Assembly: GCA_964631745.1 (NCBI GenBank)
Contig: CAZVWV010000002.1
Coordinates: 999 to 64,998, forward strand
Origin: an uncultured Bdellovibrionales bacterium
GTDB lineage: Bacteria > Bdellovibrionota_C > UBA2361 > JBGSMV01
Length of the DNA stretch: 64,000 nucleotides
Reading direction: 5' to 3'
Part shown: positions 2,922 through 18,833 of the stretch, piece by piece
Numbering within the stretch: position 1 is the first letter of the stretch
Layout: the number at the start of each line of letters is the position of its first letter
Notes under the pieces: model-generated
What the model saw: the letters and a program-made list of their open reading frames with translations, nothing else
What the model was told of the DNA's origin: nothing
Databases searched by the model: none
Translations under genes and position numbers: made by a program

Positions 2922-3026
2922 TTAGAGTATTAAATCAAAATCTTATTGTGCTCGAAAGAGCAGTAAGTCATGGCACGATGGTAGAGCTGGCTGGAAATTG
3001 CGGGTTCGCTCCCGAGCCGATCGGAT

Positions 3027-4308
3027 TTAATCTGAGGTCTTAGGAGCTGCATACTGCATTAGTTTTCGATCCAAAAGTAGTATTGAACCGAAAAGAACAC
3101 ATTTCAACAACCAAGCCACCAAGTTATACCCTAAACTCGGCAAAACAGTATAAACCTGGAAACAAAACGCAAGACTGAGCCAGCATTTGCTATATGCGAC
3201 CCAATGAAACAATTTTTGCGACTCCACCATCAAGAGCGTTACCGGCACGATAACTAAGAACTCCTCAAAATGCCCGATATATGGACTGAACAGCAAATAC
3301 ACCGCCATTATATAAATAAGTCCTCGCAACGCCCTGGCGTGCGAGTTTACCTCCACACCAAAAGCTCGCAAACTCGCCAAGCACACCCAGATAAGGAGCG
3401 CGCTCAGGGCACTCGCAAGGCCTTGTGCCAATCGGATTCCGAGAAAAGGCGCAAAGACCCGAATAAAGGTACAGTCTATAAAATCTAACGACCAGAATTT
3501 ATAGGGGCCTTCAAAAGCAGCGCCCGAGTAAGCCCGAAGTGCTGCAAGGTGTTCCCAAAGTATCCCGATCCCCCACCGCGCCGAGACAAACGTCATCGCC
3601 ACCAATAAAAACGTTAAGCCCAGCATCAGCGCCTTGAAACGCCTCGCGAAAATCAATATGGCAGCTCCACAAAGTAAATAAGGGAATTTAATCCCAAGAA
3701 GCAGGATACCAAAACCCATTACCAGATCCCGAGTTATAGTGGCTGATTGAGTAGCGTAGTAAAATAGAAGTAGTAGAAGCCCCGCCGCAAAAATCGAGCT
3801 CTGTCCGAGCATAACCGCCCGCACAAATGGGGAAGAAAAAATGAACGGCAAAATTAAAAGCAGCGGACCATGCCCAATTAGCCCGACAGGCTCAGAGCAG
3901 CGCGTCACCCGGAGCAACCCGTAAAGAAGTATTAAGCATGAAAGGCCGACAAAGTGCATAGGCCAATTGAGGCGAGAGGTGCAGCGCTACTGTAAAGGGA
4001 TACCATACAAGAATAGCAACCGGCCCAACCCCCACCGGCATTACGCCACTAGGCACAGACCCAAAATACGCCGTTAAGCCGTCAATTTGCGACTGCAATG
4101 TATAGATACTCCCAATCTTGTTCGACCAAAGTTCGTCGATTAGTATGAGATGATAGGTAAAGTCTTGAACTCTAAGCAGGCCGAAGTTCGAGGTAATTAA
4201 TCGTTGATTAGCGGCATTTATCAGATAAACAGTGATAACCAAGATACTGAAAACAAGTACGAAAAAGGCTGCGGTATGGGCTCTCTTCTGGTTAATCGTT
4301 GCCTGCAT
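3027..4308 (-). pseudogene. Polytopic membrane protein, putative GT-C/DUF2029-like glycosyltransferase. It is split into two overlapping frames (3892..4308 is the N-terminal part, 3027..3959 the C-terminal part), an apparent frameshift.
   Basis: Two same-strand ORFs overlap by 68 nt in different frames. Both are very hydrophobic and multi-TM. The combined length of about 427 aa is typical for a single membrane GT. Confidence 0.4.
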
Positions 4309-4603
4309 GAATGTGTTATCCGTTATGTGGTGGTTTAACTTAGACTACCTTACCACCGACCTAGCCCAACTAATCTACCATGCGAAAGAGTTGGCCATCG
4401 GGCGAATCCCATATCGCGACATATTTAGCCACCACTTTTTGGGGCTGCTGCTACCACTTCGTGTTATAGACATAATATGGTCGATCTCCCCCGGCCAGCA
4501 ATGGGCACTTTGTCTGGCCTATAATTTTTGCAATGCTATTCTGATCTTTCTCATAGTTCGCGAACTCGCCAGCCCCCGCGAAGCAGCCGTAAGCGGTCAC
4601 TGA
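4232..4603 (+). pseudogene. N-terminal 123-aa fragment of a GT-C glycosyltransferase paralog, truncated by an IS66-family remnant
   Basis: DYLTTDLAQLIYHAKELAIGRIPYRDIFSHHFLGLLLPL aligns with YDITEMIYHALVVKSGRIPYVDDVTHHFMGYVFPL of the 1326..2921 protein. The ORF stops inside the IS66 terminal inverted repeat (GTAAGCG at 4589). Confidence 0.5.
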
Positions 4604-5163
4604 GGCGCGTTATTGCGCAGGCGAATTTTCCAATTTTTTAGCATTCCACTCCGCCGCCCAAAGCCGTGGCGTAAGCTCTGCCACCTTAGCCATGGGGGTG
4701 GAGTCTACACGCTGCAGCACGTCTACGAAATAATCGAACGGTCGCACGCCATGCAACCGGCACGCTGCCACTAAGGATTGCACTATGGCCACCACCTTGG
4801 CGCCAACCTCAGTCCAACAAAACATCCAGTTTTTGCGCCCCATAGGGATAGGTCGTAAGGTACGTTCAAGCTTGTTGTTATCGATGGGAACCGCCGGGTC
4901 GCCCAAAAATACGCGTAGCTCTGCTTCGGCGCGAAGCGCGTGACTGGCAGCTTTGAGAAATGCATTAGATGGTAAAAGCGCCTTGGTCAGCTGCTCAGCC
5001 CGCAGCCAGTTAAAAAACTCATCCACTATCGGACGGGAATGTCGGTCCCGGGCCTTTAGCCTCTCTTCCAAAGAGGCATCTTTAACCACTTCCTCGATAT
5101 CGTAAAGCCGGCGGATATACTCCAGCGCCTTATCACTTAGTTCCGGTTCATACTGCTTTGCTT
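4589..5163 (-). mobile_element. IS66-family remnant. It encodes only the C-terminal ~200 aa of transposase TnpC and is delimited by the characteristic GTAAGCG terminal repeat.
   Basis: ORF 4610..5242 encodes EAKQYEPELSD...VDSTPMAKVAELTPRLWAAEWNAKKLENSPAQ. This is near-identical to ORF 17997..18605 on the opposite strand. The DNA terminus GTAAGCG at 4589..4595 is the typical IS66 end. Confidence 0.8.
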
Positions 5164-5350
5164 CAAAAATAATTGCGTGCGCACTTGGTAAGTTGTCAGG
5201 GAGTGATGAAGATTCGCTAGACACAAAAATTATGTAGCACAATAATTTTCCTGATGCATTATTTTCTCTTCATTCTCGTAAAGAAAATAGCAACTTCTTT
5301 AACTGCAGCCCTTCTAGCACACACATCAGCTCGCGGTAACTTATCTCTTC

Positions 5351-5427
5351 CGTGTGTGGACTCCACCCCCATGTCTAAGGTGGCAGAGCTTACGCCAAGG
5401 CTTTGGGCGGCGGAGGGGATGCTAAAA
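5351..5427 (+). repeat. Third, 77-bp fragment of the same IS66 3' region (it encodes VDSTPMSKVAELTPRLWAAE), in direct orientation to the right copy
   Basis: 5353..5427 matches 18506..18580 with 8 substitutions. It lies 190 bp from the oppositely oriented left remnant. Confidence 0.7.
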
Positions 5428-5466
5428 ACCTGCAAGAGCAATTTCAAAATTCTAGCTTCGCTTGAC

Positions 5467-6912
5467 TTAGTCCTTACCAACGGCGTTCTTTCGAATCCAT
5501 AATTGAACGCGCCGGTTATTTGATTTTATTAGTGAGAAATTACTATTAAGATACCGCTGAATATCCAGACCCTCTCTAGTCATGCGCTCATTGAGCGCCA
5601 AGAATCTTTCATGATTTTTTGGATCGATTACGATTACCTTGGCAACATCAAGAATACCGGGCATCGCCAAAGCAGAGACAGATTCATAAAACCCACAGCC
5701 AACTCCCATGGTGGTCAAAATTGGGTCTCTAAGCTTCTTACTAAGAAAGCAAAGCGAAGGGTCCGCAAAAACTAACGCCGAGGATTCGTGTGGGATATTG
5801 TCATCTAGATCTTTTGCCAAGAACCTTTGTTGATCTCTCGGTTGCCATTTCTGGAACTGGAAAGAAAGAGAAGTTACACAAATTGGATAGATCACGAGAA
5901 TACTAAACATCACAGCAAAATAGATTAGCTTGAGGCTATTTCTTTTTAGAGAGCTCTGCATGAGTTGCCAGATACCGGTAAAGGCAATCAACTTTACGAA
6001 TGGCGCGGCTAATATTATATAGTGAGGATAGGTACGGAAATAGAGGGGCAGCAGCGACGCAATCAGTGCAACAAACGCAGCCACTAAAATTTCAAACACG
6101 CATCTTGGCATTGGCAAAGCTACCATCCACAGCAAAGGGACGATGACAGGCGCAAGTAACAGGGTAAGTCGAGCCAATATTTTCCAGTCAAAAGAGAACC
6201 CGGTATAGTGCCCACCCGACAGCGTATGCAATAAGTCGACAGGCGATACACCACCGATAATATATAAGGCCGAGAAACAAAGAATAATGGGGATTGTGTA
6301 TCCGATTATAAAAATGAGTATTCGTTTAATTCTAGTTTCAATATTGAATGAGTTACGCAAAGTTAATAACAGCAAACAGGGAACAATAAATAATCCAAAC
6401 TGCTTGTAAAGAAACGCGAGACCGCTGCAATACCCTGAGAAAAAGACACCTTGAATGGGGTAACGAACGAGCAAGTAGAACGAAAATAAACTCAGTAGAG
6501 CCACAAACGGTTCGAGGACGATGTAAGTACCTTCGTAGTAGAACGTCATAAATAGAAGAGCCAGGGCGCCAAGGGTACTCAAGTTGGGGTCTTTGGTAAT
6601 TATCCTTAGGAGCTTATAAAGTATCCACGCTGTAATAAGCTGAACTACGACTAACATCGATAGGTAGATGGAATAATCAGCTTCTCGATTACTCACCCAG
6701 GCAATAACAGCAAAAGTAAATATTCCGAAAGGTGTGTATCCACAACTAAAATCCCTATAAAGGACCAATCCGTTGGATACATAATTCGCGGCACGCAAGT
6801 AGGCACCCGCATCTGGGTTGATTGGAGCAAACTCAATAATCGAACCCGCTGCTAATGCAAAGATGCAACTTAGTACAATATTTAGAAAAACGATGATTCT
6901 TCTGGGCGACAT
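5467..6912 (-). CDS. Polytopic membrane protein, probable GT-C-fold glycosyltransferase paralog
   Basis: 481 aa with at least 11 TM helices. The first-loop motif GLVLYRDFSCGYTPFG resembles that of the 1326..2921 protein, and there is a C-terminal soluble domain. It directly abuts the GT2 gene with a 0-nt gap. Confidence 0.5.
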   Translation of the reverse strand: MSPRRIIVFLNIVLSCIFALAAGSIIEFAPINPDAGAYLRAANYVSNGLVLYRDFSCGYTPFGIFTFAVIAWVSNREADYSIYLSMLVVVQLITAWILYKLLRIITKDPNLSTLGALALLFMTFYYEGTYIVLEPFVALLSLFSFYLLVRYPIQGVFFSGYCSGLAFLYKQFGLFIVPCLLLLTLRNSFNIETRIKRILIFIIGYTIPIILCFSALYIIGGVSPVDLLHTLSGGHYTGFSFDWKILARLTLLLAPVIVPLLWMVALPMPRCVFEILVAAFVALIASLLPLYFRTYPHYIILAAPFVKLIAFTGIWQLMQSSLKRNSLKLIYFAVMFSILVIYPICVTSLSFQFQKWQPRDQQRFLAKDLDDNIPHESSALVFADPSLCFLSKKLRDPILTTMGVGCGFYESVSALAMPGILDVAKVIVIDPKNHERFLALNERMTREGLDIQRYLNSNFSLIKSNNRRVQLWIRKNAVGKD

Positions 6913-7827
6913 CTAGTCAAGTTGTTTGTCAACTACATAGTTTGGGCGACCTTTAACTTCGTCTAAGATTCGCCAAATATATTCGCCAAGTATTCCCAGC
7001 ATGAACATAATGATGCCGCCAATAATAAGCAATAGCATCATAATTGGTGCCCACCCTTGGAAGGGAATCATATGCGCGTAGTACGCCCAAATGATAGTCA
7101 AGGCGTACAAGAAGCCACTGACAGCAAAGCCTCCCCCTACCACTGTGAGCAAACGAATCGGCAAATAGCTAACGTTCAAAAATGCAGAATAAAAATTCCT
7201 GAACCGTTTTACAGTATTATACTGCGATTTACCCGTTTTCCGCCGCAACTTGTCATAAGGGATAAATTTAGTTCTATAACCAGTCCATAAAATGTCATAT
7301 TGGTAGAAACGATTTCTTTCGCTCAAAGAATTTATAACATTCAATACTTTTCGGTCGAGCAAGGCGAAATCAAATCCACCAGGCGGAACATTTGGCAAGA
7401 GCAACCAATAAAAAATACGTGATGTTAATTTCCTGGCGAAGGAAGTTTGGTGAGTTCGTCTATAGCTAATGACGATTTCGCTCCCTTCCTCCCATGCCTT
7501 GATCATAGGAACACACTGCTCAGGTGGATCTTGTAAATCTGCGGCCATGTTAATCACACATTCACCGCGCGCATATTGCCAACCCGCCAGAATTGCAGCC
7601 ATTTGACCAAAATTCCTGGTAAAAGAGATAACCCGCACCTTCGCGTCACGTTCTTTTAGAGCCAATAATTCTACTAGAGAGGCATCTGTCGACCCATCAT
7701 TTACGAACAGTAATTCGTAAGAATGATGCGGGAAATGGACTGCAAATTCACCCACAATTCGCTCGTAAAGCGGCATTAGCGAACCGGCATTCTGATAAAC
7801 TGGAAAACAAACTGAAATGATACTCAC
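6913..7827 (-). CDS. GT2 polyprenyl-phosphate glycosyltransferase (ArnC/GtrB/DPM1-like) with two C-terminal TM helices
   Basis: VCFPVYQN...NDGSTD...DLQDPPE motifs of GT-A family 2, followed by the C-terminal hydrophobic hairpin typical of ArnC/GtrB. Confidence 0.8.
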   Translation of the reverse strand: MSIISVCFPVYQNAGSLMPLYERIVGEFAVHFPHHSYELLFVNDGSTDASLVELLALKERDAKVRVISFTRNFGQMAAILAGWQYARGECVINMAADLQDPPEQCVPMIKAWEEGSEIVISYRRTHQTSFARKLTSRIFYWLLLPNVPPGGFDFALLDRKVLNVINSLSERNRFYQYDILWTGYRTKFIPYDKLRRKTGKSQYNTVKRFRNFYSAFLNVSYLPIRLLTVVGGGFAVSGFLYALTIIWAYYAHMIPFQGWAPIMMLLLIIGGIIMFMLGILGEYIWRILDEVKGRPNYVVDKQLD

Positions 7828-8098
7828 GTTTCACACATGTTTATTCGATGTAGCTTGCCGTCCTAGGCCCTCATGAAGACCACACTGCACGAGAGTCACG
7901 ACACAAGCTGCATAACAAAACGCTGACCTACCATGGGTTGCCAGTCCACGGGGAAACTACCTCGCCATCCTGTTTACACGTGCGGAGTGGCGGAACTACC
8001 ATTCTTCGCGCCGGCTTGCAATGACTTGCACGATTTTCCATATCTCTTGCCCCCTCGTCCCGGAATCTATTCTCCGACTGGCATGGGAAATAGCACCA

Positions 8099-8839
8099 TT
8101 ACTTTCCCTTTTCACAAACGAGTACAATGCTAGAGCAAAGCTCGGGATAAAGCTGCCCCAATTCATAGCATCCTTTCAAATATTCATCTGAAACAATGTC
8201 CGTAGCAAGAATTCTATCCCATTGAAAGTTAGCAAGGGCCTTAAAAAAAACACCCGCTCTGTATAACACTGAAAATCCCGATGCCCGAGCATCGCGCTCA
8301 AGAGTATCGAGACTATAGGTAATTCTGTGACCATGGGCAGCTTCGGCAGCGGTTACAGCGGAATTATGCGTAATTAGTCCCATTTTAACAGCAATTTGTC
8401 GTGAAGGAGCATTAGCATTGGGGCAAACCAAGAAAAATCTACCATCATCCGTTACCCATTCTGTATTCACCCGCTTTAAGATTTCAACGGGGTTGTCCGC
8501 ATGTTCAAGAACGTGGATCATCAGAATATTATCAAATCGACACGGCAGCACTAAATCTTCGAAACGGCCATGAACAAAATTGATCTTCTTCGGTAGGCGA
8601 CTACGAGCGATGCGCAAAGCATCCGAAGACGCGTCGACACAAGTGATCTCATCAAAATGACCCAAAATTCGTTCGGTAAAATCACCTTGAAAACTGCCAA
8701 GTTCAAGAGCCTTCCCAGCTCTAAAAAATGGAGCAATGGTGCGAAGCACAAACGGGTGCATCACTTCGTAGTCAAAGCGATAGGCATACTTGCGCACTTC
8801 GTTATCTTTACATTCTTTATTGTAATCTCTGCTTGACAT
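8099..8839 (-). CDS. Class I SAM-dependent methyltransferase
   Basis: Motif I ALELGSFQGDFT and motif II/III ILMIHVLEHADNP. It is paralogous to the 13318..14058 product; both end in a PELC/PELSCG region. Confidence 0.75.
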   Translation of the reverse strand: MSSRDYNKECKDNEVRKYAYRFDYEVMHPFVLRTIAPFFRAGKALELGSFQGDFTERILGHFDEITCVDASSDALRIARSRLPKKINFVHGRFEDLVLPCRFDNILMIHVLEHADNPVEILKRVNTEWVTDDGRFFLVCPNANAPSRQIAVKMGLITHNSAVTAAEAAHGHRITYSLDTLERDARASGFSVLYRAGVFFKALANFQWDRILATDIVSDEYLKGCYELGQLYPELCSSIVLVCEKGK

Positions 8840-8899
8840 CGAAATTAAGTGTATATTTTAAGTCGCCAAATTGGAGCTCGGTCATAAATTATATTAAAA

Positions 8900-9856
8900 T
8901 CACAGTTCGACCAATTGCGCCATACCGAAACCCGTCTTGCCAAATTCATTGCCATTATAGAGTAGATAGATCTGTTCATCGCATCGAAATATATGGGGAT
9001 AGCAAAGCATTTGGGAATCCCAGCCACTTTCTGAACGATTTAATCCTCCCCTCTTGTCATCGCGAATCCAATTGACTAAATCCATCGAACGGGCATAGCC
9101 AAGCCGATAACTCCGTTGCTTTCCTGATCTAAACCCCGTAGCGTGGCGATAACAGAAATACATATGGTAGCAATCATCAATTTTAATCACGCTTGGAAGC
9201 GCCTGACACTCATTTTCGTCTAAAACAGTCTCGATAAGCTGCTTACTGTCACGTTGCCAATGAACTCCGTCCACCGACTGTGCCTGAGCAATGCGGTAAA
9301 CCCTTTGTGGCTCAGTTTCATACGGATCGCAAAACCACTTACATCCGTAGATATACCACATATAGTATCGCTCCCCAATTTTGGATACAAAAGCATCGCT
9401 GACCAAAAAGGGCTCAAGAAGCGAAGCACCTAGTACTGGGCCCTGACCAAGCTTCTCGAATGTCAGCCCTTGATCGTTACTCACCGCATAGCCAATCGAT
9501 GCCTCAGCTGATACAGAGACTCTTCTACTCCATCCAGTCGTGTATGCAATTATCTTATTCCCGTCCCGAAGAACATTCATCGGAAAAATGCCGTGTTCGT
9601 CGAAACATCCGGGTCCTCCCAAGGCGATGACAGGTTCTTGGGCGACAGCCCTAATTGATTTAAAATCCTTATCGAAATCGACATAAGCTACCAGACTCAA
9701 ATATTTTCCATTCTTGTCGAGCATTCGAGTCGAGAAATATACTCGCACAAAATCGTCAAAGACTAAGGCCTGGGGCGACTGTGCGAAAGCCGTACACTGC
9801 TTAGGAAGCTTATGGGTCGAAGGATCGAATATCTGCCCCAATTTTTTCCAAAACAT
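8900..9856 (-). CDS. BNR/Asp-box repeat beta-propeller protein (sialidase or glycoside-hydrolase-like fold), paralog 2
   Basis: Asp-box motifs SNDQGLTF and SVDGVHW. About 45% identical to the adjacent 9863..10828 product (MFWKKLGQIFDP vs MFSWKKLGRVLDP). Confidence 0.45.
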   Translation of the reverse strand: MFWKKLGQIFDPSTHKLPKQCTAFAQSPQALVFDDFVRVYFSTRMLDKNGKYLSLVAYVDFDKDFKSIRAVAQEPVIALGGPGCFDEHGIFPMNVLRDGNKIIAYTTGWSRRVSVSAEASIGYAVSNDQGLTFEKLGQGPVLGASLLEPFLVSDAFVSKIGERYYMWYIYGCKWFCDPYETEPQRVYRIAQAQSVDGVHWQRDSKQLIETVLDENECQALPSVIKIDDCYHMYFCYRHATGFRSGKQRSYRLGYARSMDLVNWIRDDKRGGLNRSESGWDSQMLCYPHIFRCDEQIYLLYNGNEFGKTGFGMAQLVEL

Positions 9857-9862
9857 TTCTTC

Positions 9863-10828
9863 TTAAGCCCCCGAGTAAGTGTCTAATTCTGCTAATCCAA
9901 AACCGACTCTGCCGATTTCATTCCCTTGGTAAAGCACGTACAGTTTACCGTCCAGTTCTACCAAATGAGCATAGCTTATAGATTCCGAGTCCCATCCGGA
10001 CCCCGACGTAGTCAAACCGGCTCGTCCATCCAAACGCACCCAATTATAAAGGTCGTCCGAGCAAGCATAGCCTATACGATAACCACGAGTTGGCTGAGTG
10101 AATCTCAGTGCATACCGGTATGAAAAAAACATATGATACTTATCTCTGAAGAAGGTGACATCGGGACTTGCTTGACATTCCTCTTCGCTCAAGACGGGAG
10201 GAATTAATGTCTTGCCAACTTTAGTCCAGTTCAACCCGTCACTCGAGTAGGCCATGCGTATCTTGTATACCGGTTCTGAACGAGTATCGGTCAGTAGCCA
10301 CTTATCGCCCGCGACGTACCAAAGGTACCACATGTCTTTAAATCTTCTAATTTTTGGACTCCCGATAACAAAGGGTTCGTCTGGGCTATAACCGAGCACT
10401 GGTCCTTCACCAAGACGTTGAAAAGTTTCTCCATTATCCCAGCTGACGGCGACACCAATAGCAGCATTAAACGGGACCGATTCGCATCTGGTCCAACCTG
10501 CATAATACAGTCTTATTTCGTCACCGTAGCGAATGACAGAAGCAGGATAGATACCAAATTCATCGAAGGTGCCTAAGCGGCCGAGCGGTAAGACTGGATT
10601 TGGAGCCAATGCTTTGACACAACGAAGATCTTTTCGATCTAAATCGACGTAACCAAGCTGGCTTACATACTGACCGGCACTATCGGGAGATGTACGAGAT
10701 GAGAAGAAGACTCGAACATTCTCGTCAAGCACCAAGGCTGAAGGAGCCTGCGCAAACTCTCGAATCCATGTTGAACTTGGTATTGAGGCGGGATCAAGAA
10801 CTCTACCCAATTTTTTCCATGAAAACAT
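9863..10828 (-). CDS. BNR/Asp-box repeat beta-propeller protein (sialidase or glycoside-hydrolase-like fold), paralog 1
   Basis: Asp-box motifs SWDNGETF and SSDGLNWT. Tandem paralog of the 8900..9856 product. Confidence 0.45.
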   Translation of the reverse strand: MFSWKKLGRVLDPASIPSSTWIREFAQAPSALVLDENVRVFFSSRTSPDSAGQYVSQLGYVDLDRKDLRCVKALAPNPVLPLGRLGTFDEFGIYPASVIRYGDEIRLYYAGWTRCESVPFNAAIGVAVSWDNGETFQRLGEGPVLGYSPDEPFVIGSPKIRRFKDMWYLWYVAGDKWLLTDTRSEPVYKIRMAYSSDGLNWTKVGKTLIPPVLSEEECQASPDVTFFRDKYHMFFSYRYALRFTQPTRGYRIGYACSDDLYNWVRLDGRAGLTTSGSGWDSESISYAHLVELDGKLYVLYQGNEIGRVGFGLAELDTYSGA

Positions 10829-10839
10829 ATTCCGTGCTG

Positions 10840-11511
10840 CTAAGACAGTTTACACAAACTCTCTGCACCGGTTTTCAAGCATCCATAGTAATAGTCGTTA
10901 AAACCAGCGGCTTCCATCATCTCGAAAATTTTATGCATATCGTATGTGACCCTATGTAATTCAAATCGACCATCGAATGTCGCAAAAGCAGCACGCGGGT
11001 CCTTGTCTCGTGGTTGCCCAACTGAGCCGGGGTTGCAATAAGCCTTGCTGCCATAGTCGCATAAGATCTGCTTATGAGTGTGCCCTGAAACAAAAAATTT
11101 GCCGACAATATTACGAAAATAGTCAGCAGTAGGTTGTACATACTCATCAATGGGATCCGACCAACCGCCGTGAACCAAATGCAGCTTACCTACTCTTCTA
11201 TGCAACGAAAGTTGGCTTAACCAGCTCAAGTTGTCCGCGGTAATAATCTTGCGTTGGTAGGTCAAACAATCGTTGACACTTCTGGAGCGCGGACAGAAGC
11301 CTCCGCCCACCATATACCAATCGTGATTGCCCATTATTGTGGGGATTTCACGCCCTATGAGCTCCTGACAACACTCATTGATCTGAGGATAATAGCCTAC
11401 GACATCACCAAGACAATACACCTGCGACACGCGCAGCGCATCTAGCTTCGCCAAGACCGATTGTAATGCTTCGTAATTGCCATGGATATCAGAAATGAGA
11501 CCAATTTTCAT
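10840..11511 (-). CDS. Calcineurin-like metallophosphoesterase (YfcE/MJ0936-type)
   Basis: DIHGN, GDvvgyyP, GNHD and GHTH motifs. Overlaps the upstream ATP-grasp gene by 4 nt. Confidence 0.75.
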   Translation of the reverse strand: MKIGLISDIHGNYEALQSVLAKLDALRVSQVYCLGDVVGYYPQINECCQELIGREIPTIMGNHDWYMVGGGFCPRSRSVNDCLTYQRKIITADNLSWLSQLSLHRRVGKLHLVHGGWSDPIDEYVQPTADYFRNIVGKFFVSGHTHKQILCDYGSKAYCNPGSVGQPRDKDPRAAFATFDGRFELHRVTYDMHKIFEMMEAAGFNDYYYGCLKTGAESLCKLS

Positions 11512-12470
11512 TTATACGAAACTAAGTCTTCCACATAACGTACCGCTTCGCCATATCTAAGCTTGGGCTGGCGCGGCAACTTCTTTTCTAGAAAAAAATC
11601 AACTAACATCGCAGACTCGTTGTAGCCAAAAGCAGTTCGCATAGATGTGGAAGAAGAGATGCGCGGGTTAATTTCAAGCAATTTTAAGGCCCCGGCGTGT
11701 TTTCTAAATTGAAAATTTGTAGGTCCCAGCGGGCGAAAATAGCGGCACAGTTCGCGCAAGACATCTTGCGCCTCATCGAGTTTCACAACTTCCGCCCTGT
11801 CCGTATATCCATCCTTTGATAACCTACGGCGCAAACTTATTTGCGCACAGTAATCGCCATTTCCATCACCAAAGACTGAAACAGTATACTCTTCCTCGTC
11901 ACTTCCCACAAGTGCTTGCGACATTAAAGACTTACCAATATTCTCACGATGGGCCAGAAATACAGTCCGATCTGCCACCCTCACTATTCCGCGAGCAGCA
12001 TGCCCATGACGCGGTTTCAATATGAACGGAACGCCGAACCGTTCAGCAAGAAGATCAAAATTGTCATCCAATGACGAATCTATAACAAATGCTGGATTGA
12101 GTTTTGCCAGGTGTCCATAAAAAACCCATTTGTCCTTGCAAAGGGCGATTAACTCCGGTCTGTTCAGCGCGAATATGCGGCTGTTTTTTGACATTTCATG
12201 CAAATTCTCACTCCACTTGTACATATCAATCTCAATTCCCGGGACAACTAAATCCACTGCATGCTTACGAATCGTTGCATCCAACCATCCTATATAGCCG
12301 TCGTCATTTGTATTCGGAGCAACTTCAAAAATATCACTGAAGTGTTCAGCGATAGTTCCCGTATAGATGGAAGTGCCAATCAGCGTCACGTTTTCATGGA
12401 CTTTCCGCAGGGAACGCAAAATTCCATAACCGATAATTCCACTGGCTCCCGAAACCAAAATTGTTGTCAT
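11508..12470 (-). CDS. ATP-grasp family ligase
   Basis: FILKPRHGHAARGI (the ATP-binding lysine loop) and LEINPRISSS (the E-x-N signature of ATP-grasp enzymes). N-terminal Rossmann-like GASGIIG. Confidence 0.75.
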   Translation of the reverse strand: MTTILVSGASGIIGYGILRSLRKVHENVTLIGTSIYTGTIAEHFSDIFEVAPNTNDDGYIGWLDATIRKHAVDLVVPGIEIDMYKWSENLHEMSKNSRIFALNRPELIALCKDKWVFYGHLAKLNPAFVIDSSLDDNFDLLAERFGVPFILKPRHGHAARGIVRVADRTVFLAHRENIGKSLMSQALVGSDEEEYTVSVFGDGNGDYCAQISLRRRLSKDGYTDRAEVVKLDEAQDVLRELCRYFRPLGPTNFQFRKHAGALKLLEINPRISSSTSMRTAFGYNESAMLVDFFLEKKLPRQPKLRYGEAVRYVEDLVSYK

Positions 12471-13354
12471 ATGTCTATCTTTGTCCTTCTCGAAGATGCT
12501 ATGCGATTTAACCCTTCCTGAATAGAAATCTTAGGGTAAAAACCGATTCGCTCATAAAGCGAGAAGTTCTTATGGAAGATCTTATCAGCAAGGTCGTCTC
12601 GCGTAATATCGAAGCTGACCTTCCCATGGCGCCCAAACGCCTCAAAGGCGGCATTAGCAACAGTTGAATAAGAATAATCCTGTACATACTGGCAATTGTA
12701 GATCCCTTCGAGACGCAGCTGTACAACTCGGCGCAAGACATCCGTGAGATCTTCGATGAAAATGTAATTTCGTAAAGCGTCATGGCTACCGTAAATGATG
12801 ATATCTCTGCCAGCTTGAGCTTGATCAATAATATGATACAAGAAAGGCTGATGTCGACGGAAGTTTTCAGTCTCACCGTAAATTTGAGAAGGACGCACGA
12901 TGCACAACGGGAGAGAGTTGGTTGCACAATGCATCACCGCCACATCCTCAGAATATCTTTTTGTCAAAGCATATGGTGAATACGAAGCAAAACCTTGCCC
13001 AATAGATGCAAAAATGCTCGAAACTTGAATAAAATGCTTTGCGCCCATTTTGGCGGCTTTTTCACAAAGCCTTAGTGTCCCAAGGACATTAATATTGATT
13101 GCGTCTGATAGTTGATTATACGACGCACCTCCGAAGTGCGCCGCGGTATTTATAACAACATCCAGATTCGTTGGAATTTCCATCTCCTCTGGACCTTCCG
13201 CCAAGTCAACATGAACATCACAAGAATTCCGGCCGCCGGTCACTACCTCACAGAATTCAGAAAGCGCAACTTTGAGTGCTACCCCTAATGCAGAATGACC
13301 CCCGACAATCAGAACTTTCATCGCATCCTCTGAATTTGGGCTAGTATTCCGCAC
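12467..13354 (-). CDS. NAD-dependent epimerase/dehydratase family (extended SDR) protein
   Basis: N-terminal MKVLIVGGHSALG nucleotide-binding motif and catalytic YALTK (YxxxK). Overlaps both neighbouring genes by 4 nt and 37 nt. Confidence 0.7.
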   Translation of the reverse strand: MRNTSPNSEDAMKVLIVGGHSALGVALKVALSEFCEVVTGGRNSCDVHVDLAEGPEEMEIPTNLDVVINTAAHFGGASYNQLSDAININVLGTLRLCEKAAKMGAKHFIQVSSIFASIGQGFASYSPYALTKRYSEDVAVMHCATNSLPLCIVRPSQIYGETENFRRHQPFLYHIIDQAQAGRDIIIYGSHDALRNYIFIEDLTDVLRRVVQLRLEGIYNCQYVQDYSYSTVANAAFEAFGRHGKVSFDITRDDLADKIFHKNFSLYERIGFYPKISIQEGLNRIASSRRTKIDI

Positions 13355-14058
13355 GAAAGTTCAGGATAACCAATTCCTACTTCACATAATGCGTCGATAA
13401 TCCGATGGTCTAGCTTCAAATCCAAAATTTGCTTGGTCGTAAACGGTTTGAGATAAATTCCTTCCAATTGCGCAATCTCACAACCTGCCTTATGCACGTC
13501 CTCTCTCAATGTACGAACAGTATAGTAGCGCTTGTGTCCAAGCAAAACATCATTGCCCGATAGCTCTTCGATGTTGGGCAGCAAGCCCGCAATGTGCCCC
13601 AGCCTTCGATTAAGGGCTTCGGCATTAGGCACGGCAACATATAGTGTCCCACCGGGCTCCAAAAATCTTGCATAACGCGAAATGAGAAAAGCGGGATTAT
13701 CCACATGCTCCAAAACAAAGCCCAAAACAATCAAGTCAAAAATCTCAGTGGTGTCAAAACTTTCGAAGAGTGACTCAACTACTTGCGCTGAACAATCTGG
13801 AAATCTTTGCTTAAAATGGACTGTGACGGCAGGCGAACCATCTATCACCACATGTCGTTTAAAATGCTTCGCGAATCTAGCGGTGGAATACCCATGACCC
13901 AATCCTAACTCTAATAAAGACTTCGCCTCACCTGACAAGGCAATGATTCGCTCAGGATACCAATTCAATAAAATTTCATTATCAAAATCGTACAAAATCC
14001 CACCGTTATAGGCAGTGACCGATCTATCCAATGTTTTATTCATAGGTGTGTCACTCAT
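13318..14058 (-). CDS. Class I SAM-dependent methyltransferase, paralog of the 8099..8839 product
   Basis: Motif I LELGLGHGYS, LIVLGFVLEHVDNP, and a C-terminus co-linear with the other methyltransferase. Confidence 0.7.
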   Translation of the reverse strand: MSDTPMNKTLDRSVTAYNGGILYDFDNEILLNWYPERIIALSGEAKSLLELGLGHGYSTARFAKHFKRHVVIDGSPAVTVHFKQRFPDCSAQVVESLFESFDTTEIFDLIVLGFVLEHVDNPAFLISRYARFLEPGGTLYVAVPNAEALNRRLGHIAGLLPNIEELSGNDVLLGHKRYYTVRTLREDVHKAGCEIAQLEGIYLKPFTTKQILDLKLDHRIIDALCEVGIGYPELSCGILAQIQRMR

Positions 14059-14064
14059 GTCTTA

Positions 14065-15150
14065 TTATTCGATTACTTCACCGACGATCCTAGCTATTTT
14101 GGAAACAATTTCAGACTCAAGGTCATGATACAATGGTAAGCATAGCACTCGCTTGGCTACGTCTTCCGTAATTGGAACGCTTTGCGGTTTAACATAATTA
14201 AGCCTATTCAGCGCAGGGTAAAAGTAGCGACGGGTCAATATAAGTTGATCTTTCAACGCAGCACGGACACGCAACAAAACGCTTTCTGATTCAAAAAGCA
14301 CAGGATAGTAAGAATAATTATATTGCAGACCTGGTTGGCTAGTCGGCCTGCTAAGCTTAGCCTTCCAAAATGGCGCCAGCAGCCTGTCGTATTCATCGGT
14401 TACGACTTTTCTTTTTTGAATGAGTGTTGGAACATGGGGAAGAACTGCTAGGCCCATAGCAGCGTGGAGTTCCGAATTCTTTGCATTAATTCCTAATCCA
14501 AAAAAAGCCTCGGGGCCATTGTGCCCGAAATTCATCAAGTAAAATATCTTGTGTGCGAGGTCATCGTCATTAGTTAAAATGGCCCCGCCTTCCCCAGTAT
14601 GAAATAGTTTAGTGGCATGGAAACTGACTGTCGAGATATCGCCGTTATTTAATATCGCTTTTCCATTCAAACGACACGCAAAAGCCTGGGCCCCGTCGTA
14701 TATGACCTTGAGACGATTAGCTTCTGCGATTTGCTGTATTTTTTCCACATCGCAACTATTACCGTAAACATGCACCGGCAAAATTGCCGATGTATTTCCA
14801 TTAATTTTTGCTTCTATACATGCAGGGTCGAGACAAAATGTGCGCGGGTCTATTTCAGAATAAATTGGCTCGCACCCCTCCCAACAAATCGCCGCGGTAG
14901 TGGCGACGTAACTGAAAGCGCTAGTGATAATTTCCCCACCAAGTCCTAGTGCGCGAATAGCAATTTGCAAGGCAATCGTGCCGTTGCTGACTAGATAAAC
15001 ATGCTTTACTCCGAACAGAGACTTAAGCTCGGCCTGCAAGCGCTGAGATAGAGGACCATGATTCGTAACCCAACGCTGGTCCCAAATTTGCCGCAGATAT
15101 TCCACATAGGTATTAAAATCGGGAACGAATGTTTTGGTTACGGTAATCAT
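14065..15150 (-). CDS. DegT/DnrJ/EryC1/StrS-family PLP-dependent sugar aminotransferase (ArnB/PseC-like)
   Basis: 361 aa. SFHATK carries the PLP lysine. Family-typical N-terminus (VTKTFVPDFNTYVEYLRQIWD..WVTNHGP) and C-terminal LCLPLYHDL. Confidence 0.85.
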   Translation of the reverse strand: MITVTKTFVPDFNTYVEYLRQIWDQRWVTNHGPLSQRLQAELKSLFGVKHVYLVSNGTIALQIAIRALGLGGEIITSAFSYVATTAAICWEGCEPIYSEIDPRTFCLDPACIEAKINGNTSAILPVHVYGNSCDVEKIQQIAEANRLKVIYDGAQAFACRLNGKAILNNGDISTVSFHATKLFHTGEGGAILTNDDDLAHKIFYLMNFGHNGPEAFFGLGINAKNSELHAAMGLAVLPHVPTLIQKRKVVTDEYDRLLAPFWKAKLSRPTSQPGLQYNYSYYPVLFESESVLLRVRAALKDQLILTRRYFYPALNRLNYVKPQSVPITEDVAKRVLCLPLYHDLESEIVSKIARIVGEVIE

Positions 15151-15629
15151 TGGTAACCGTCTCCAATTGTACCTGAATTGAAAAATTTACAGTTTGAAAT
15201 ATATTTGCACGATATTGTATACAATTCATCAATCCCTTTCGGATCTTTCTATCACTAAGTCACAGCTCGGTCGATAGCCCCAGGACAATCTCACTGGCAG
15301 CAACCTATCGTCCTATAATCTACTGGTATAATTGAGGAAATTGAAATGAGGCAGATAGGCAAGAGTTGCACCCCTGAATAGAGTTAGCATTATAGTCTAA
15401 CCTATCAGAAGAAAAGCCGATGGAAGCGCGTCTAGTAAATTTCGCACTACTGTCACATTTTTCAGTTATCAGGGATCCACGTCGCATATGCGGAAAGTTA
15501 CATCGGCTTGAGAAGATCTTATGCCTGTCTGTGTAGGGCATTATAAGCGGAGCTGAGAGTTGGGTTGAAACTCTGCGCAGGCCAGTAAGTGCAGAAATAG
15601 TATCGATTGACGGAAAGACGCTGCGGCGT

Positions 15630-16301
15630 TCATTTGACAAGGCAAACGGTTTGCATCCACTTCATATAGTGAGCGCACTGGTCATAGCGTCCGCCAGCGG
15701 CCACGCTCCCACACTCCCTGTATCCCTCCATCTGCACCTCCAGAATGGTGCCGGTATAGTAATCCAATCCGCGAGCAAGGCTCAGGTCGACCTCGATGTT
15801 AGCCAGCGCATCGGGATCCAAAAGCGATACAAGCTCCACCATTTTCGTCTTTGCCTTCCAAGCAGAGCTTATTGTTCACTTACAAGCTAGACAGAACGTA
15901 CCGCCTTCAGCCGCAGGAATTTTTACCTCCGCAAAGTCGGTGATTCTTTTGGCTTGGCTTTGGTCGATCTTGACCTTTTCAATGAGATCTTTAAGCACTG
16001 CATCTCTGCCGGTCTTGGCAATTTTATCCAGCACCGTTATGGCAGCCTTTGACTCGTCGGCATTCAGGCCAAGCGAGGCACAGATTCCAAGCAACAGCTT
16101 ACGGTTATTAATACGCATGGCATGTTTACCGACATCAAGCACCTTGAAGACCTGATGCATGGCCGAGCGGTAGGTGCAGCACCTGTGCCGGACTTTGGTC
16201 ATACATCCTGGGCGACACCGTGCGCTTTGTGGATTCAATTCCGCCGCGCGTGATGGTAACCGGCCGCACGTCGTAATTACCTCTCGGCATTCCGTGAACA
16301 T
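15630..16301 (-). pseudogene. Decayed fragment of a histidyl-tRNA synthetase-like (HisS/HisZ class II) gene with in-frame stops
   Basis: [16 protein letters not shown]...[10 protein letters not shown] is the HisRS motif-3 region. Upstream in the same frame, INNRKLLLGI...ITVLDKIAKTGRDAVLKDL.EKVKID matches the HisRS insertion domain. Two stop codons at 15876..15878 and 15870..15872 separate the pieces. The N-terminal motif 1/2 region and the anticodon-binding domain are absent. Confidence 0.5.
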
Positions 16302-16898
16302 TTAATAGCCGAAGAGATCGAGGCCGGAATTTCCGGGGCCGCCGCCGCCATCGGGCGGGATGTAAGCGATTATCCGGTAGGCGCTCTGTACCCAACCAGC
16401 GCGTTGGAGCTAGGCGGCCATCTTTATGTGGTGGAGTTCAGCGGAACAGGCGAGATTCAAAACCAAAAGGCTCTAGATGAATTCTCAGCCGTCTTAGACC
16501 GCATACTCTGCGCGCGAAGCGCGGATTACGCCGCCCACCGAAACTAAGGTTTCGGGCTTAAGCCGCCCCAAATAAAGCCTGTGCGACCTGGGTCTTTTGC
16601 GGATTGAATGAAATCACGCGGCAAGTTCGGCGGGCAGAATAAGGTGCCACGGATTATTAATCGGGGGAGGTGTTTGATGGGCTGGTGGCGTATGAGTGAG
16701 GAGGAGGAGCACTTGAGGGTCTATCTATGATGCAAGAGTGGCTGTCTATTACTAGCCCCATTTTGGATCAAAGATCACGACTCTTAATTGAAGCTATGGG
16801 TTCAGTTTTGTCCTTAAGCGGGTGATCGGGTCTTTCGCTAGGGCCCGGGAAAATCTATCGTCTTACAGGATTCAGGAATTAGAACAGGTAGGTCACTC

Positions 16899-17603
16899 GT
16901 GAAAATAGCTATCATGCAACCGTACTGGTTTCCATACATCGGCTATTTTCAGCTCATGTCCGCAGTGGACACCTTCATAGTATACGACAATGTGCAGTAT
17001 ACAAAAAAGGGTTGGGTTAATCGCAATCGAATACTCCATCAAAGTCAACCAGTTCAAATCTCCATACCCATAAAGAAAGGGGGTCATTCGCTATTCATAA
17101 TTGACCGGATCATTGCTGACAATTGGAGTACACAACGGTGGAGAATCTTAAATCAAGTGCGCGATTTTTACCTGCAAGCTCCGATGTATCAAGATGTATT
17201 CCCACTAGTAGAGAACTGCCTATTGCACGAAGATTTAAATCTTTTTCGACATATTTCCTATTCAATTCGTAAGACCCGTGAGTACATGGGCTTGGCGTCA
17301 ACTTTTCTCGTTTCCTCCGAATTAAAAATCGATCACACCCTAAAAGGAGAAGACAAAGTTATTGCAATTTGTAGCGAAATCGGCGCAAAGCAATACATAA
17401 ACCCAATCGGTGGAACCGAACTTTACTCCAGGGAGAAATTCGCCTCATATGGCATTGATTTGCGATTCTTGAAGTCAAAGCAAATTGAATACAAACAATT
17501 CGATAAATCCTTCGTGCCTTGGCTCTCAATAATTGACGTGTTAATGTTTAATGACCTAGAAACTACTAATCAGTTTCTGAAACACGAATATATGTTGCTG
17601 TAA
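16899..17603 (+). CDS. WbqC-like family protein (function unknown, polysaccharide loci)
   Basis: MKIAIMQPYWFPYIGYFQLMSAVDTFIVYDNVQYTKKGWVNRNRI is the hallmark N-terminus of the WbqC family. GTG start. Confidence 0.75.
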   Translation: MKIAIMQPYWFPYIGYFQLMSAVDTFIVYDNVQYTKKGWVNRNRILHQSQPVQISIPIKKGGHSLFIIDRIIADNWSTQRWRILNQVRDFYLQAPMYQDVFPLVENCLLHEDLNLFRHISYSIRKTREYMGLASTFLVSSELKIDHTLKGEDKVIAICSEIGAKQYINPIGGTELYSREKFASYGIDLRFLKSKQIEYKQFDKSFVPWLSIIDVLMFNDLETTNQFLKHEYMLL

Positions 17604-17746
17604 CCCTAGAGGTGAGTTCATGAATACCCGTAGCAAGGCAAGTAGGCTTATTGCGTATGCAAGAAAGGTGACAGAGCGAGCGCGCAGGGAGCCTTTCAAC
17701 AAGAAATAGATGGCTGTCTGAATATCGGCTATATGAAGCTAGCAGA

Positions 17747-18626
17747 ATGACAGTGAAAGCGTTTTGCGCGGAGCGCAAGCTCAATTACTATACGTTTAAG
17801 GGCTGGCAGAGAGTGTTTAGCCGAGAGGGAGTAGAGCAGTTTCGCGAGTTGGCACCCACGCCAAATGCGGAGGCTAGCTACGCTGTAGTGTTAGCCAACG
17901 GCCGGGAGCTTAAAGTAAGCGCTGGATTTTCGATTACATCTAGGGGGCCAGGGGAACGGTACCAATTCTGGTCAACCACCGATCCGGTCGGCACTTTTGT
18001 TAGAGCCCATATACGAGGCGCAGCTAGCCTCGGCGCTCAACGAGTTCTTTGAAGCAAAGCAGTATGAACCGGAACTAAGTGATAGGGCGCTGGAGTATAT
18101 CCGCCGACTTTACGATATCGAGGAAGTGGTTAAAGATGCCTCTTTGGAAGAGAGGCTAAAGGCCCGGGACCGACATTCCCGTCCGATAGTGGATGAGTTT
18201 TTTAACTGGCTGCGGGCTGAGCAGCTGACCAAGGCGCTTTTACCATCTAATGCATTTCTCAAAGCTGCCAGTCACGCGCTTCGCGCCGAAGCAGAGCTAC
18301 GCGTATTTTTGGGCGACCCGGCGGTTCCCATCGATAACAACAAGCTTGAACGTACCTTACGACCTATCCCTATGGGGCGCAAAAACTGGATGTTTTGTTG
18401 GACTGAGGTTGGCGCCAAGGTGGTGGCCATAGTGCAATCCTTAGTGGCAGCGTGCCGGTTGCATGGCGTGCGACCGTTCGATTATTTCGTAGACGTGCTG
18501 CAGCGTGTAGACTCCACCCCCATGGCTAAGGTGGCAGAGCTTACGCCACGGCTTTGGGCGGCGGAGTGGAATTCTAAAAAATTGGAAAATTCGCCTGCGC
18601 AATAACGCGCCTCAGTGACCGCTTAC
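17747..18626 (+). mobile_element. IS66-family remnant. A short tnpA-like ORF (17747..18052) is fused or adjacent to the C-terminal ~200 aa of tnpC (17997..18605), ending in the terminal repeat CGCTTAC at 18620..18626. tnpB and the N-terminal half of tnpC are deleted.
   Basis: HTH-like FCAERKLNYYTFKGWQR and ...VVLANGRELKVSAGF resemble IS66 TnpA. 18049..18622 is about 97% identical to the reverse complement of 4590..5163. Confidence 0.75.
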
Positions 18627-18833
18627 ATGCCGTTTGATAGTTTGCATTTATTGTAATCACATTAGTGTAAAACAACTTGGTCTTTCGGATCGCTCTGAGT
18701 CCTTATGCGTTCAACGCTCTGATTTTCAATTGCGCCATTCATACGAATTGACTCTTCAAAAGCTACCGCCGCATCTCATTGCCAAACAGTTTCGCCGACA
18801 ACGTAAGTAAGCGCTTAGTATGAAATTTCTTAC

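Follow-up and report, generated by a model that had tools for sequence, protein, structure and literature searches.

IS66-family remnants in inverted orientation bracket a low-GC sugar-modification block beside the nuo operon, with junctions suggestive of IS-associated scrambling

The window analyzed here, a 64-kb stretch of metagenome-derived DNA, contains a block of sugar-modification genes lying between two inverted IS66-related sequences and next to the nuo operon. The features of the region are as follows.

4232..4588, plus strand: truncated gene of which 119 N-terminal codons are left, paralogous to that of the 531-aa membrane protein encoded by ORF 1326-2921 (minus strand)
4589..5167, minus strand: left arm, 579 nt from the 3′ end of an IS66-family element, covering TnpC residues ~349-538, with the right terminal repeat intact and the outward tip GTAAGCGG at 4589
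5168..5346, no strand assigned: filler of 179 bp between the left arm and the third remnant
5347..~5477, plus strand: third, older IS66-family 3′-end remnant, ~88-93% similar to the arms over ~75-90 nt, with a tblastn match to TnpC residues 504-520
5467..7827, minus strand: distal end of the operon, with genes for a polytopic membrane protein of 481 aa that matched no family and for a GT2 glycosyltransferase
8099..15150, minus strand: eight-gene operon, recognized by Pfam matches and conserved order
15630..16154, minus strand: frameshifted HisRS-like pseudogene with hisS profile positions ~142-291 of 406 recognizable and a host-like GC of ~0.52
16380..16730, plus strand: C-terminal fragment of a GH3/OlsH-like amido-synthetase pseudogene with two in-frame stops, 5′-truncated near 16380-16400
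16899..17603, plus strand: intact WbqC-family gene (Pfam E 3e-66)
17696..17917, plus strand: tnpA remnant of the right IS66 element (NCBIfam IS66 TnpA, E 5.6e-7, 30 bits against a cut-off of 28)
17976..18035, plus strand: short TnpC piece, residues ~233-253 ('SALLLEPIYEAQLASAL'), just N-terminal of the catalytic DETP motif
18048..18626, plus strand: right arm, a second copy of the 579-nt IS66 3′ fragment; its outward tip is at 18626, 207 bp downstream of the nuoN stop
18834..20306, minus strand: nuoN, the last gene of the nuo operon, where ordinary core chromosome begins

Three of these features, the third IS66 remnant, the short TnpC piece and the GH3-like fragment, had been missed in a preliminary description of this DNA.

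Profile matches agreed with the gene content reported earlier for the segment between the arms, namely a DegT aminotransferase operon, a GT2 gene, a HisRS-like pseudogene and WbqC. In transcription order the eight-gene operon encodes a DegT aminotransferase, a SAM methyltransferase, an NAD epimerase/dehydratase, an ATP-grasp protein and a metallophosphoesterase, followed by two GH130/GH32N-like propeller proteins and a second SAM methyltransferase. The bracketed genes belong to a ten-gene cassette whose arrangement is conserved across metagenomes, the operon being the core of this cassette, which many of them contain. None of the family-library matches to the ten genes indicates a function. 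The cassette was found at 80 other loci, none of which has an IS66 gene within 10 kb. Its GC content in other genomes ranges from 0.31 to 0.66, mostly tracking that of the host, and the best homologue of the ATP-grasp protein is 60% identical. In 26 of 27 other loci the gene immediately after DegT, on the same strand, is WbqC; here it is displaced and inverted relative to this canonical slot between DegT and the methyltransferase. Within the 2.4 kb of the bracketed segment nearest to nuo lie the displaced WbqC and the two pseudogene fragments, HisRS-like and GH3-like, which diverge from a breakpoint near 16400.

Comparison of the block with its flanks, which had been proposed as a check, showed it to be compositionally distinct. 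The GC content of the bracketed genes is 0.441 (n=11) against 0.497 for the flanking genes (n=33; Mann-Whitney p = 1.8e-6), and GC3 is 0.434 against 0.529 in the same gene sets (p = 3.1e-6). There is a sharp step at the IS remnants: membrane genes of the left flank have a GC of 0.48-0.49 and bracketed genes one of 0.40-0.47, while the pseudogene patch inside the bracket is host-like. A composition deviating from that of the host, with boundaries at mobility-gene remnants, is as expected of a horizontally acquired genomic island. The intact 10-kb low-GC copy of the cassette may have been horizontally acquired, composition being the only evidence for this.

The two arms form an inverted repeat of 579 nt each, with 12,880 nt in between. 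Their alignment verified the inverted copies of about 575 bp reported earlier, together with their boundaries, and revised the identity upwards from the ~97% first given: only three mismatches (at 4642, 5108 and 5130) separate the arms, corresponding to 99.5% identity, and one run of 466 nt is free of mismatches. Both tips are intact, point outwards and are identical over at least 29 nt. This 29-nt tip occurs exactly twice in the window and in none of 100 shuffles, so the repeat cannot be attributed to chance. At the inner junctions the sequences adjoining the two arms differ.

The repeated sequence is homologous to TnpC, the DDE transposase of IS66. Both arms match Pfam DDE_Tnp_IS66 (profile positions 161-283 of 284; E 1.4e-29) as well as IS66_C. 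They also match NCBIfam transpos_IS66 (E 9e-43); being partial, this match scores 147 bits, short of the 180-bit full-length cut-off. Against the 538-aa TnpC of ISAzo19, the arms cover residues ~349-538, with 50% identity over 183-190 aa (residues 342/349-531). Each arm had been said to carry the C-terminal half of TnpC and a GTAAGCG repeat. The C-terminal region and an intact GTAAGCG-type right-end tip are indeed present in both; the portion retained amounts to some 35% of the protein, not to half of it. Both arms terminate in GTAAGCGGTCACTGAGG, the counterpart of which at the ISAzo19 tip is GTAAGCGGTAACTGACC.

Residues 1-348 of TnpC are gone from both copies, apart from the 20-aa piece in the right one, and the DETP region is missing. 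With this first part of the DDE domain deleted, neither copy would be able to supply transposase. A comparison with IS66 TnpB revealed no tnpB in either copy and the tnpA remnant is found in the right copy alone, so the arms are to be classed as remnants of an IS66 element and not as an IS66 element. The earlier claim that the right copy keeps a tnpA-like ORF and has lost tnpB was thus borne out, the TnpA match lying just above its cut-off. The ORF containing the tnpA remnant (17747-18052) continues into unrelated sequence. Behind the short TnpC piece a deletion of ~95 aa takes out the DETP region and ends at the right-arm boundary; this junction of the right copy's internal tnpC deletion is no more than about 12 nt away from the inner boundary of the arms. 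No left terminal repeat was recognizable upstream of the tnpA remnant, the search for one being at chance level (89 of 500 shuffles reach the score).

On the left side, the tip of the third remnant was placed tentatively at 5477 from a gapped alignment, where it overlaps the last codons of the 481-aa ORF. Neither IS66 TnpA, TnpB and TnpC nor any other part of the window resembles the filler between this remnant and the left arm. Within the 64 kb there is no full-length copy of this IS and no IS66 sequence beyond the remnants described, no other mobile elements were found in the rest of the window, and no active transposase is present in the flanking copies or elsewhere within it. A full-length copy of this IS66 member is not on record; of the closest TnpC fragments, one is 74% identical and itself another remnant, and the other is ~58% identical. 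JGI metagenome contigs contained 0 exact matches to a 30-mer of the IS end.

The preliminary description took the block for one mobilized into this site as a composite unit, and the junctions do not agree with this. At the left, the IS tip cuts the membrane-protein gene exactly after codon 119; the product of the truncated gene matches residues 2-110 of the 531-aa protein (tblastn, 31% identity over 115 aa, E 6e-16). The remaining ~410 codons are absent from the right junction and from everywhere else in the 64 kb, so that removal of the unit does not restore the target: the gene cut at 4588 does not resume at 18627. The search of the flanks for an 8-bp target-site duplication, suggested earlier, gave no match between AAGCAGCC (4581-4588) on the left and ATGCCGTT (18627-18634) on the right, and the remaining pairings of termini likewise lack one. 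The reference ISAzo19, by comparison, has GTAAGCGG tips with a perfect 8-bp duplication, GGGCTGCC, on both sides. Simple insertion of a unit is not supported by the sequence, since the target-site duplication is missing and the remainder of the cut gene is nowhere in the window, and the arms share their inner breakpoint.

The explanation that we favour, and consider reasonably probable, is that the IS66 sequences are relics of IS66-family activity in an IS-scrambled surface-glycan locus, with the arms being copies of one already-truncated fragment. This locus would lie downstream of nuo in a Bdellovibrionota/Oligoflexia-like genome that has not been sampled. One 579-nt IS66 3′ fragment would have given rise to two inverted copies with tips outward, and an older IS66 end lies beside the left copy; all three remnants are non-autonomous, lacking tnpB, the DETP part of the DDE domain and a detectable left end. 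The same inner breakpoint and the mere three differences argue that the arms are recently arisen copies of one truncated fragment. Duplication or conversion of this fragment during an IS-associated rearrangement is the most likely route, and two independent insertions of a full-length IS are less likely; alternatively, the shared breakpoint could result from two transpositions of one non-autonomous derivative with a coincident later deletion. The borders were probably formed by insertion followed by deletion or rearrangement, as suggested by loss of the remainder of the gene, lack of a target-site duplication and the mosaic nuo-proximal 2.4 kb; the other 10 kb hold the widespread sugar-modification cassette in an intact, low-GC copy. 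A single sequence does not allow the order of events to be reconstructed. There is no close relative to bear witness to the ancestral state, NuoN being at most 57% identical and the 531-aa protein of the left flank having no homologue in 5.8 billion clusters. In the nearest genomes (NuoN 49-57% identical) the nuo operon is common to both, and nothing downstream of nuoN is shared with the window.

A true composite transposon is improbable. It would require a 14-kb unit with two IS66 right ends that moved into this site, mobilized in trans by a full-length IS66 elsewhere, and a later IS-adjacent deletion that took one of the target duplications along with what was left of the interrupted gene. 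IS-adjacent deletions sparing the IS tip are known IS behaviour, and composite transposition followed by such a deletion would yield identical junctions; the outer tips are both intact, identical and correctly oriented, and the cargo is compositionally distinct with its boundary at the IS remnants. Against this stand the missing duplication and a target gene with no continuation at the right junction or elsewhere in the 64 kb. Moreover, each arm is the right end of a fragment that was already truncated and whose left end is undetectable. Neither the unit nor the IS end turned up in another copy (the 30-mer had 0 JGI metagenome matches), the TnpC sequences on record reach at most 74% identity, and the cassette occurs at 80 other loci without IS66. 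The 14-kb unit was not detected elsewhere by either of these comparisons, in a lineage that is very poorly sampled.

The locus might instead be an ancestral one: a native low-GC surface-polysaccharide locus spanning 1-17.6 kb on which IS66 landed incidentally, so that the bracket would have nothing to do with the arrival of the genes. We regard this as quite improbable. Low GC is common in polysaccharide loci, the left flank also has large orphan membrane proteins, one of which has the truncated gene as a paralogue, the GC of the cassette usually tracks that of the host, pointing to long residence in many lineages, and the 60% identity of the best ATP-grasp homologue leaves no close donor. However, the GC/GC3 step at the IS remnants is sharp, with flank membrane genes and bracketed genes on different sides of it, and the host-like GC of the bracketed pseudogene patch argues for a mosaic and not for one coherent native locus. 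It is also unlikely that the joins across the 579-nt repeat, in orientation of the middle or in linkage of the segments, are errors of assembly in this MAG contig, in which case no single cell need carry the bracket as drawn. In favour of such errors, the 466-nt mismatch-free stretch is longer than the k-mers of short reads, a separate k-mer assembly of run SRR12762304 ends only 31 nt inside the IS at the nuoN junction, and an assembly graph would be equally consistent with both orientations of the middle segment. Nevertheless, the three mismatches indicate that two distinct copies exist, and the inner junction sequences differ, as expected of two real loci. The outer nuoN-IS junction is repeated in an independent Logan contig from SRR12762304, and one island gene occurs in the same run. 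The inverted-repeat bracket would stand even with a wrong orientation.

In their present state, and on the explanation preferred here, the arms would be passive, providing homology for RecA-dependent inversion of the 12.9-kb segment; 579 bp of inverted sequence with 99.5% identity is plausibly ample substrate for homologous inversion. As for a programmed invertible switch, inverted repeats are present and a dedicated site-specific recombinase is not: no recombinase or invertase domain was detected among the scanned ORFs of at least 80 aa across 1.3-18.6 kb. The proposal that inversion would uncouple the operon from its flanking promoters was not sustained, the 1.75 kb upstream of the first operon gene lying inside the invertible segment and promoter scans being at chance level. 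It is very doubtful that the 14-kb segment is still mobilizable, in trans by a full-length IS66 elsewhere, or is flipped by RecA at an appreciable frequency. In the former case a full-length copy of this otherwise unrecorded IS66 member would recognize the two identical right ends. If it were such a mobilizable or invertible unit, a Bdellovibrionota-like bacterium would carry or switch, as one block, a widely conserved and uncharacterized DegT-ATP-grasp-propeller glycan cassette.

Overall, the data partly support a composite-transposon-like island. The bracketing architecture and the distinct composition hold, in that IS66 remnants do bracket a low-GC sugar-modification block beside the nuo operon; composite mobilization and promoter uncoupling do not, and the junctions suggest IS-associated scrambling and not a clean composite insertion. 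Beyond annotation the significance is small: the region is an example, from a poorly sampled lineage, of IS66 debris marking and scrambling the edge of a surface-glycan locus, and orientation at this repeat in the metagenome-derived contig is not to be trusted. The most useful by-product is recognition of the ten-gene cassette, with its conserved order in metagenomes spanning the GC range given above.

Among known elements, the arms are most readily compared with ISAzo19 (Aromatoleum aromaticum plasmid 2, locus L091). Besides the 50% identity in the C-terminal region of TnpC, the terminal sequences are nearly the same, GTAAGCGGTCACTGAGG...GCGTTATT here and GTAAGCGGTAACTGACC...GCGTTATT in ISAzo19, and a remnant of a tnpA-type accessory gene, as in IS66-family elements, is present. 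Unlike ISAzo19 and IS66, the arms lack tnpB, the N-terminal two-thirds of TnpC including DETP, a recognizable left terminal repeat and the 8-bp duplication. With Tn5 and Tn10 the locus shares inverted IS sequences, outward intact termini and passenger genes between them. It differs from these composite transposons in that both flanking copies are truncated, transposase-dead and apparently copies of one fragment representing the same (right) end, the target duplication is missing, the interrupted target gene is incomplete and the unit was not found elsewhere. The locus may also be set beside IS-mediated chromosomal inversions and IS-bordered O-antigen and capsule clusters. It resembles the former in having long inverted repeats that could support RecA-dependent inversion, and the latter in being a low-GC polysaccharide-modification cluster with IS remnants at its borders and pseudogene debris at one of them.

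The window contains one long repeat, an inverted pair of 579-nt arms with 12,880 nt between them. The preliminary description had reported an inverted pair of IS66-family fragments with an identity of about 97% judged by eye; the pair was confirmed, and alignment put the identity at 99.5%, with only three mismatches (positions 4642, 5108 and 5130). A 29-nt tip, GTAAGCGGTCACTGAGGCGCGTTATTGCG, is present exactly twice, once per arm and facing outward, and gave no matches in 100 shuffles. Both arms encode the C-terminal part of an IS66 transposase (positions 161–283 of 284 in the Pfam DDE_Tnp_IS66 profile, together with the IS66 C-terminal element), corresponding at 50% identity to residues ~349–538 of the 538-aa TnpC of ISAzo19, a reference IS66 of Aromatoleum aromaticum. 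The ISAzo19 locus (L091) carries an intact insertion: its tips read GTAAGCGGTAACTGACC..., and the 8-bp duplication, GGGCTGCC, is perfect. The IS66-related features of the window are as follows.

4589–5167, minus strand: left arm, IS66-family 3′ fragment
18048–18626, plus strand: right arm, IS66-family 3′ fragment
17747–18052, plus strand: tnpA remnant of the right copy; residues 1–57 match positions 18–79 of 79 in the NCBIfam IS66 TnpA profile
After a gap of ~80 nt from the tnpA remnant: TnpC piece of the right copy, 20 aa, SALLLEPIYEAQLASAL
5347–~5477, plus strand: third IS66 remnant, 88–93% similar to the arms over 75–90 nt, encoding VDSTPMSKVAELTPRLW

The tnpA remnant scored 30 bits against the NCBIfam cut-off of 28, and tnpB is missing from the right copy. 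The 20-aa piece belongs immediately before the catalytic DETP motif of full-length TnpC; after it about 95 residues are deleted in the right copy, and reading resumes at FFEAKQYEPEL. The left copy starts at FEAKQYEPEL and is preceded by 179 nt of unrelated sequence. Neither this filler (5168–5346) nor the stretch 17604–18047 is similar to other parts of the window. No left terminal repeat was detectable upstream of the tnpA remnant, the best alignment score being reached by 89 of 500 shuffles; candidates picked by eye at 17600 and 17630 were rejected, because local alignments to the right end of the window's own element and to the left end of ISAzo19 were at chance level.

Towards the inside, the 579 nt common to both arms end within about a dozen nucleotides of the junction left by the internal deletion in the right copy. 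A common inner breakpoint is unexpected from two full-length insertions decaying independently, and the arms are therefore read as copies of one fragment: they are probably recent copies, made by duplication or conversion, of a single already truncated fragment. The third remnant derives from an older or different IS66 element, and its probable tip overlaps the final codons of the ORF for a 481-aa polytopic membrane protein at the distal end of the bracketed operon. Left arm and third remnant stand back to back with tips outward as an 889-bp unit (4589–5477) with a 179-bp unrelated core. This unit is bounded by two IS66 right-end-like termini and has no flanking duplication (AAGCAGCC versus CAACGGCG).

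Between the arms, the operon at 15150–8099 (minus strand) and the GT2 gene match a cassette present in many metagenome contigs. The main features of this segment are listed below.

6913–15150 and 16899–17603: ten-gene cassette, its order conserved in dozens of contigs (loci L094, L106, L124, L125, L128, L134 and others)
Between WbqC and DegT: HisRS-like pseudogene, frameshifted, covering hisS profile positions ~142–291 of 406
16380–16730, plus strand: GH3/OlsH-like acyl-amido synthetase pseudogene, C-terminal ~110 codons with motif GKFGGQNKVPRI and two in-frame stops

The order of the cassette, on one strand, is DegT aminotransferase, WbqC, methyltransferase, epimerase/dehydratase, ATP-grasp protein (ATPgrasp_Ter type), metallophosphoesterase, two GH130/GH32N-like propeller proteins, methyltransferase and GT2. 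Cassette proteins elsewhere are 45–68% identical to those of the window, in cassettes with a GC content of 0.31–0.66. More than 2,600 ATP-grasp homologues were found at E≤1e-40; the best, among 5.8 billion clusters, is only 60% identical, and hence no recent cassette donor can be named. None of 80 cassette loci had IS66, nuo, HisRS-like or 481-aa protein homologues within 10 kb, and no family-library match gave an indication of the cassette's function.

Of the 27 loci with both genes, 26 have WbqC directly after DegT in the same orientation. In the window WbqC (16899–17603) is read from the other strand, lies 1.75 kb upstream of DegT (13318–15150) and abuts the right IS remnant; the spacing between DegT and the methyltransferase gene is 6 nt. 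A single inversion is insufficient to explain this displacement. The GH3/OlsH-like fragment is on the strand opposite to the HisRS-like pseudogene, and the two diverge from a breakpoint near 16400 in surroundings of host-like GC. The segment between the arms is thus mosaic, with ~10 kb of intact cassette and 2.4 kb of rearranged debris.

The left flank (1326–4588) is occupied by a group of large ORFs for polytopic membrane proteins, of 531, 310 and 138 aa plus a truncated paralogue; Pfam and NCBIfam gave no match for them. The 310-aa ORF shares 68 nt with the 138-aa ORF in another frame, so that the two may represent one frameshifted gene. The remaining window carries ordinary core functions (UvrD-like helicase, acyl-CoA carboxylase subunits, hybrid sensor kinase, Lgt, MlaA, SodA/B and a class II aminoacyl-tRNA synthetase) and no other mobile elements.

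Target duplications of 8 bp are established for the IS66 family. The outer flanks of the arms, AAGCAGCC (left) and ATGCCGTT (right), do not match, hence there is no 8-bp duplication, and no pairing of termini, direct or reverse-complemented, yielded a convincing one. The best results, a 5/8 match for the unsupported candidate at 17600 and an offset 6-mer shared by two right ends, were judged to be chance. The left tip lies directly after codon 119 of an ORF (4232–4588, plus strand) whose product resembles the N-terminus of the 531-aa membrane protein encoded next to it (ORF 1326–2921, minus strand; 31% identity, E 6e-16). The rest of the gene cut at 4588 was found neither from 18627 onward nor elsewhere in the window. 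Since the interrupted gene fails to resume at the right junction, simple transposition of a 14-kb unit into it is not supported, and at least one deletion or rearrangement must have shaped the borders. The data do not distinguish a composite insertion followed by an adjacent deletion from separate IS events with recombination; we consider genuine composite transposition with a subsequent adjacent deletion unlikely. An Rfam scan of the window detected no RNA family and thus no tRNA integration site.

Misassembly, or an arbitrary orientation in the MAG, is likewise unlikely in our judgement. An independent k-mer assembly of SRR12762304 reproduced the nuoN–IS junction, ending 31 nt into the IS, and short Logan contigs of SRR12762304 contained nuoN and one island methyltransferase gene by exact-protein match; no such matches are on record for the 531-aa protein, the 481-aa protein, WbqC or the 202-aa TnpC fragment. 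These data support the outer nuoN–IS junction and not linkage or orientation across the arm, which holds a 466-nt mismatch-free stretch. The remaining alternative, a native locus on which IS copies merely landed, appears the least probable. The bracketed genes (n=11) have a mean GC of 0.441 versus 0.497 for other long ORFs of the window (n=33; Mann-Whitney p 1.8e-6) and a GC3 of 0.434 versus 0.529 (same genes; p 3.1e-6). The left-flank membrane genes (0.48–0.49) and the IS fragments (0.52–0.53) are host-like in GC. Among 185,579 species genomes, NuoN relatives reach at most 57% identity, the nearest being Bdellovibrionota/Oligoflexia MAGs. Gene order in their nuo operons agrees with that of the window at 18.8–30 kb; downstream of nuoN they show no match to the window, and none of the flank or island genes is located close to their nuoN. 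The 531-aa protein has no homologue but itself among 5.8 billion protein clusters, so there is no relative in which the paralogue might be seen intact or the site empty.

The likeliest reading, which we hold to be reasonably probable, is that dead IS66 relics mark the IS-scrambled border of a surface-glycan locus. The relics would be unable to transpose by themselves and would offer only passive homology for inversion. The earlier suggestion that such an inversion would uncouple the operon from flanking promoters was not supported: the region upstream of the operon is itself part of the invertible segment, and scans for consensus promoters did no better than chance. Promoter and terminator scans at the junctions gave counts not clearly above shuffled controls, promoter-like sites being below the shuffled mean at 15100–18900 and ~1.5 sd above it at 4100–5600.

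The IS66 member of the window is not on record as a full-length copy. A 30-mer from the IS end had no exact matches in JGI metagenomes, the protein collection held no full-length close TnpC relative, and the nearest TnpC fragments are 74% and ~58% identical. The former, P0002, is likewise a C-terminal remnant, in an unrelated context. This 151-aa IS66 TnpC remnant (loci L082–L090) occupies the same conserved site in several metagenome contigs, freshwater or other, where it is flanked by genes for an AAA/DUF4143 ATPase and a LanC-like protein. Its recurrence indicates that C-terminal TnpC relics persist in other genomes too. The conserved cassette may deserve attention of its own; it is already well known that IS remnants border polysaccharide clusters and that long inverted IS copies serve as substrates for inversion.
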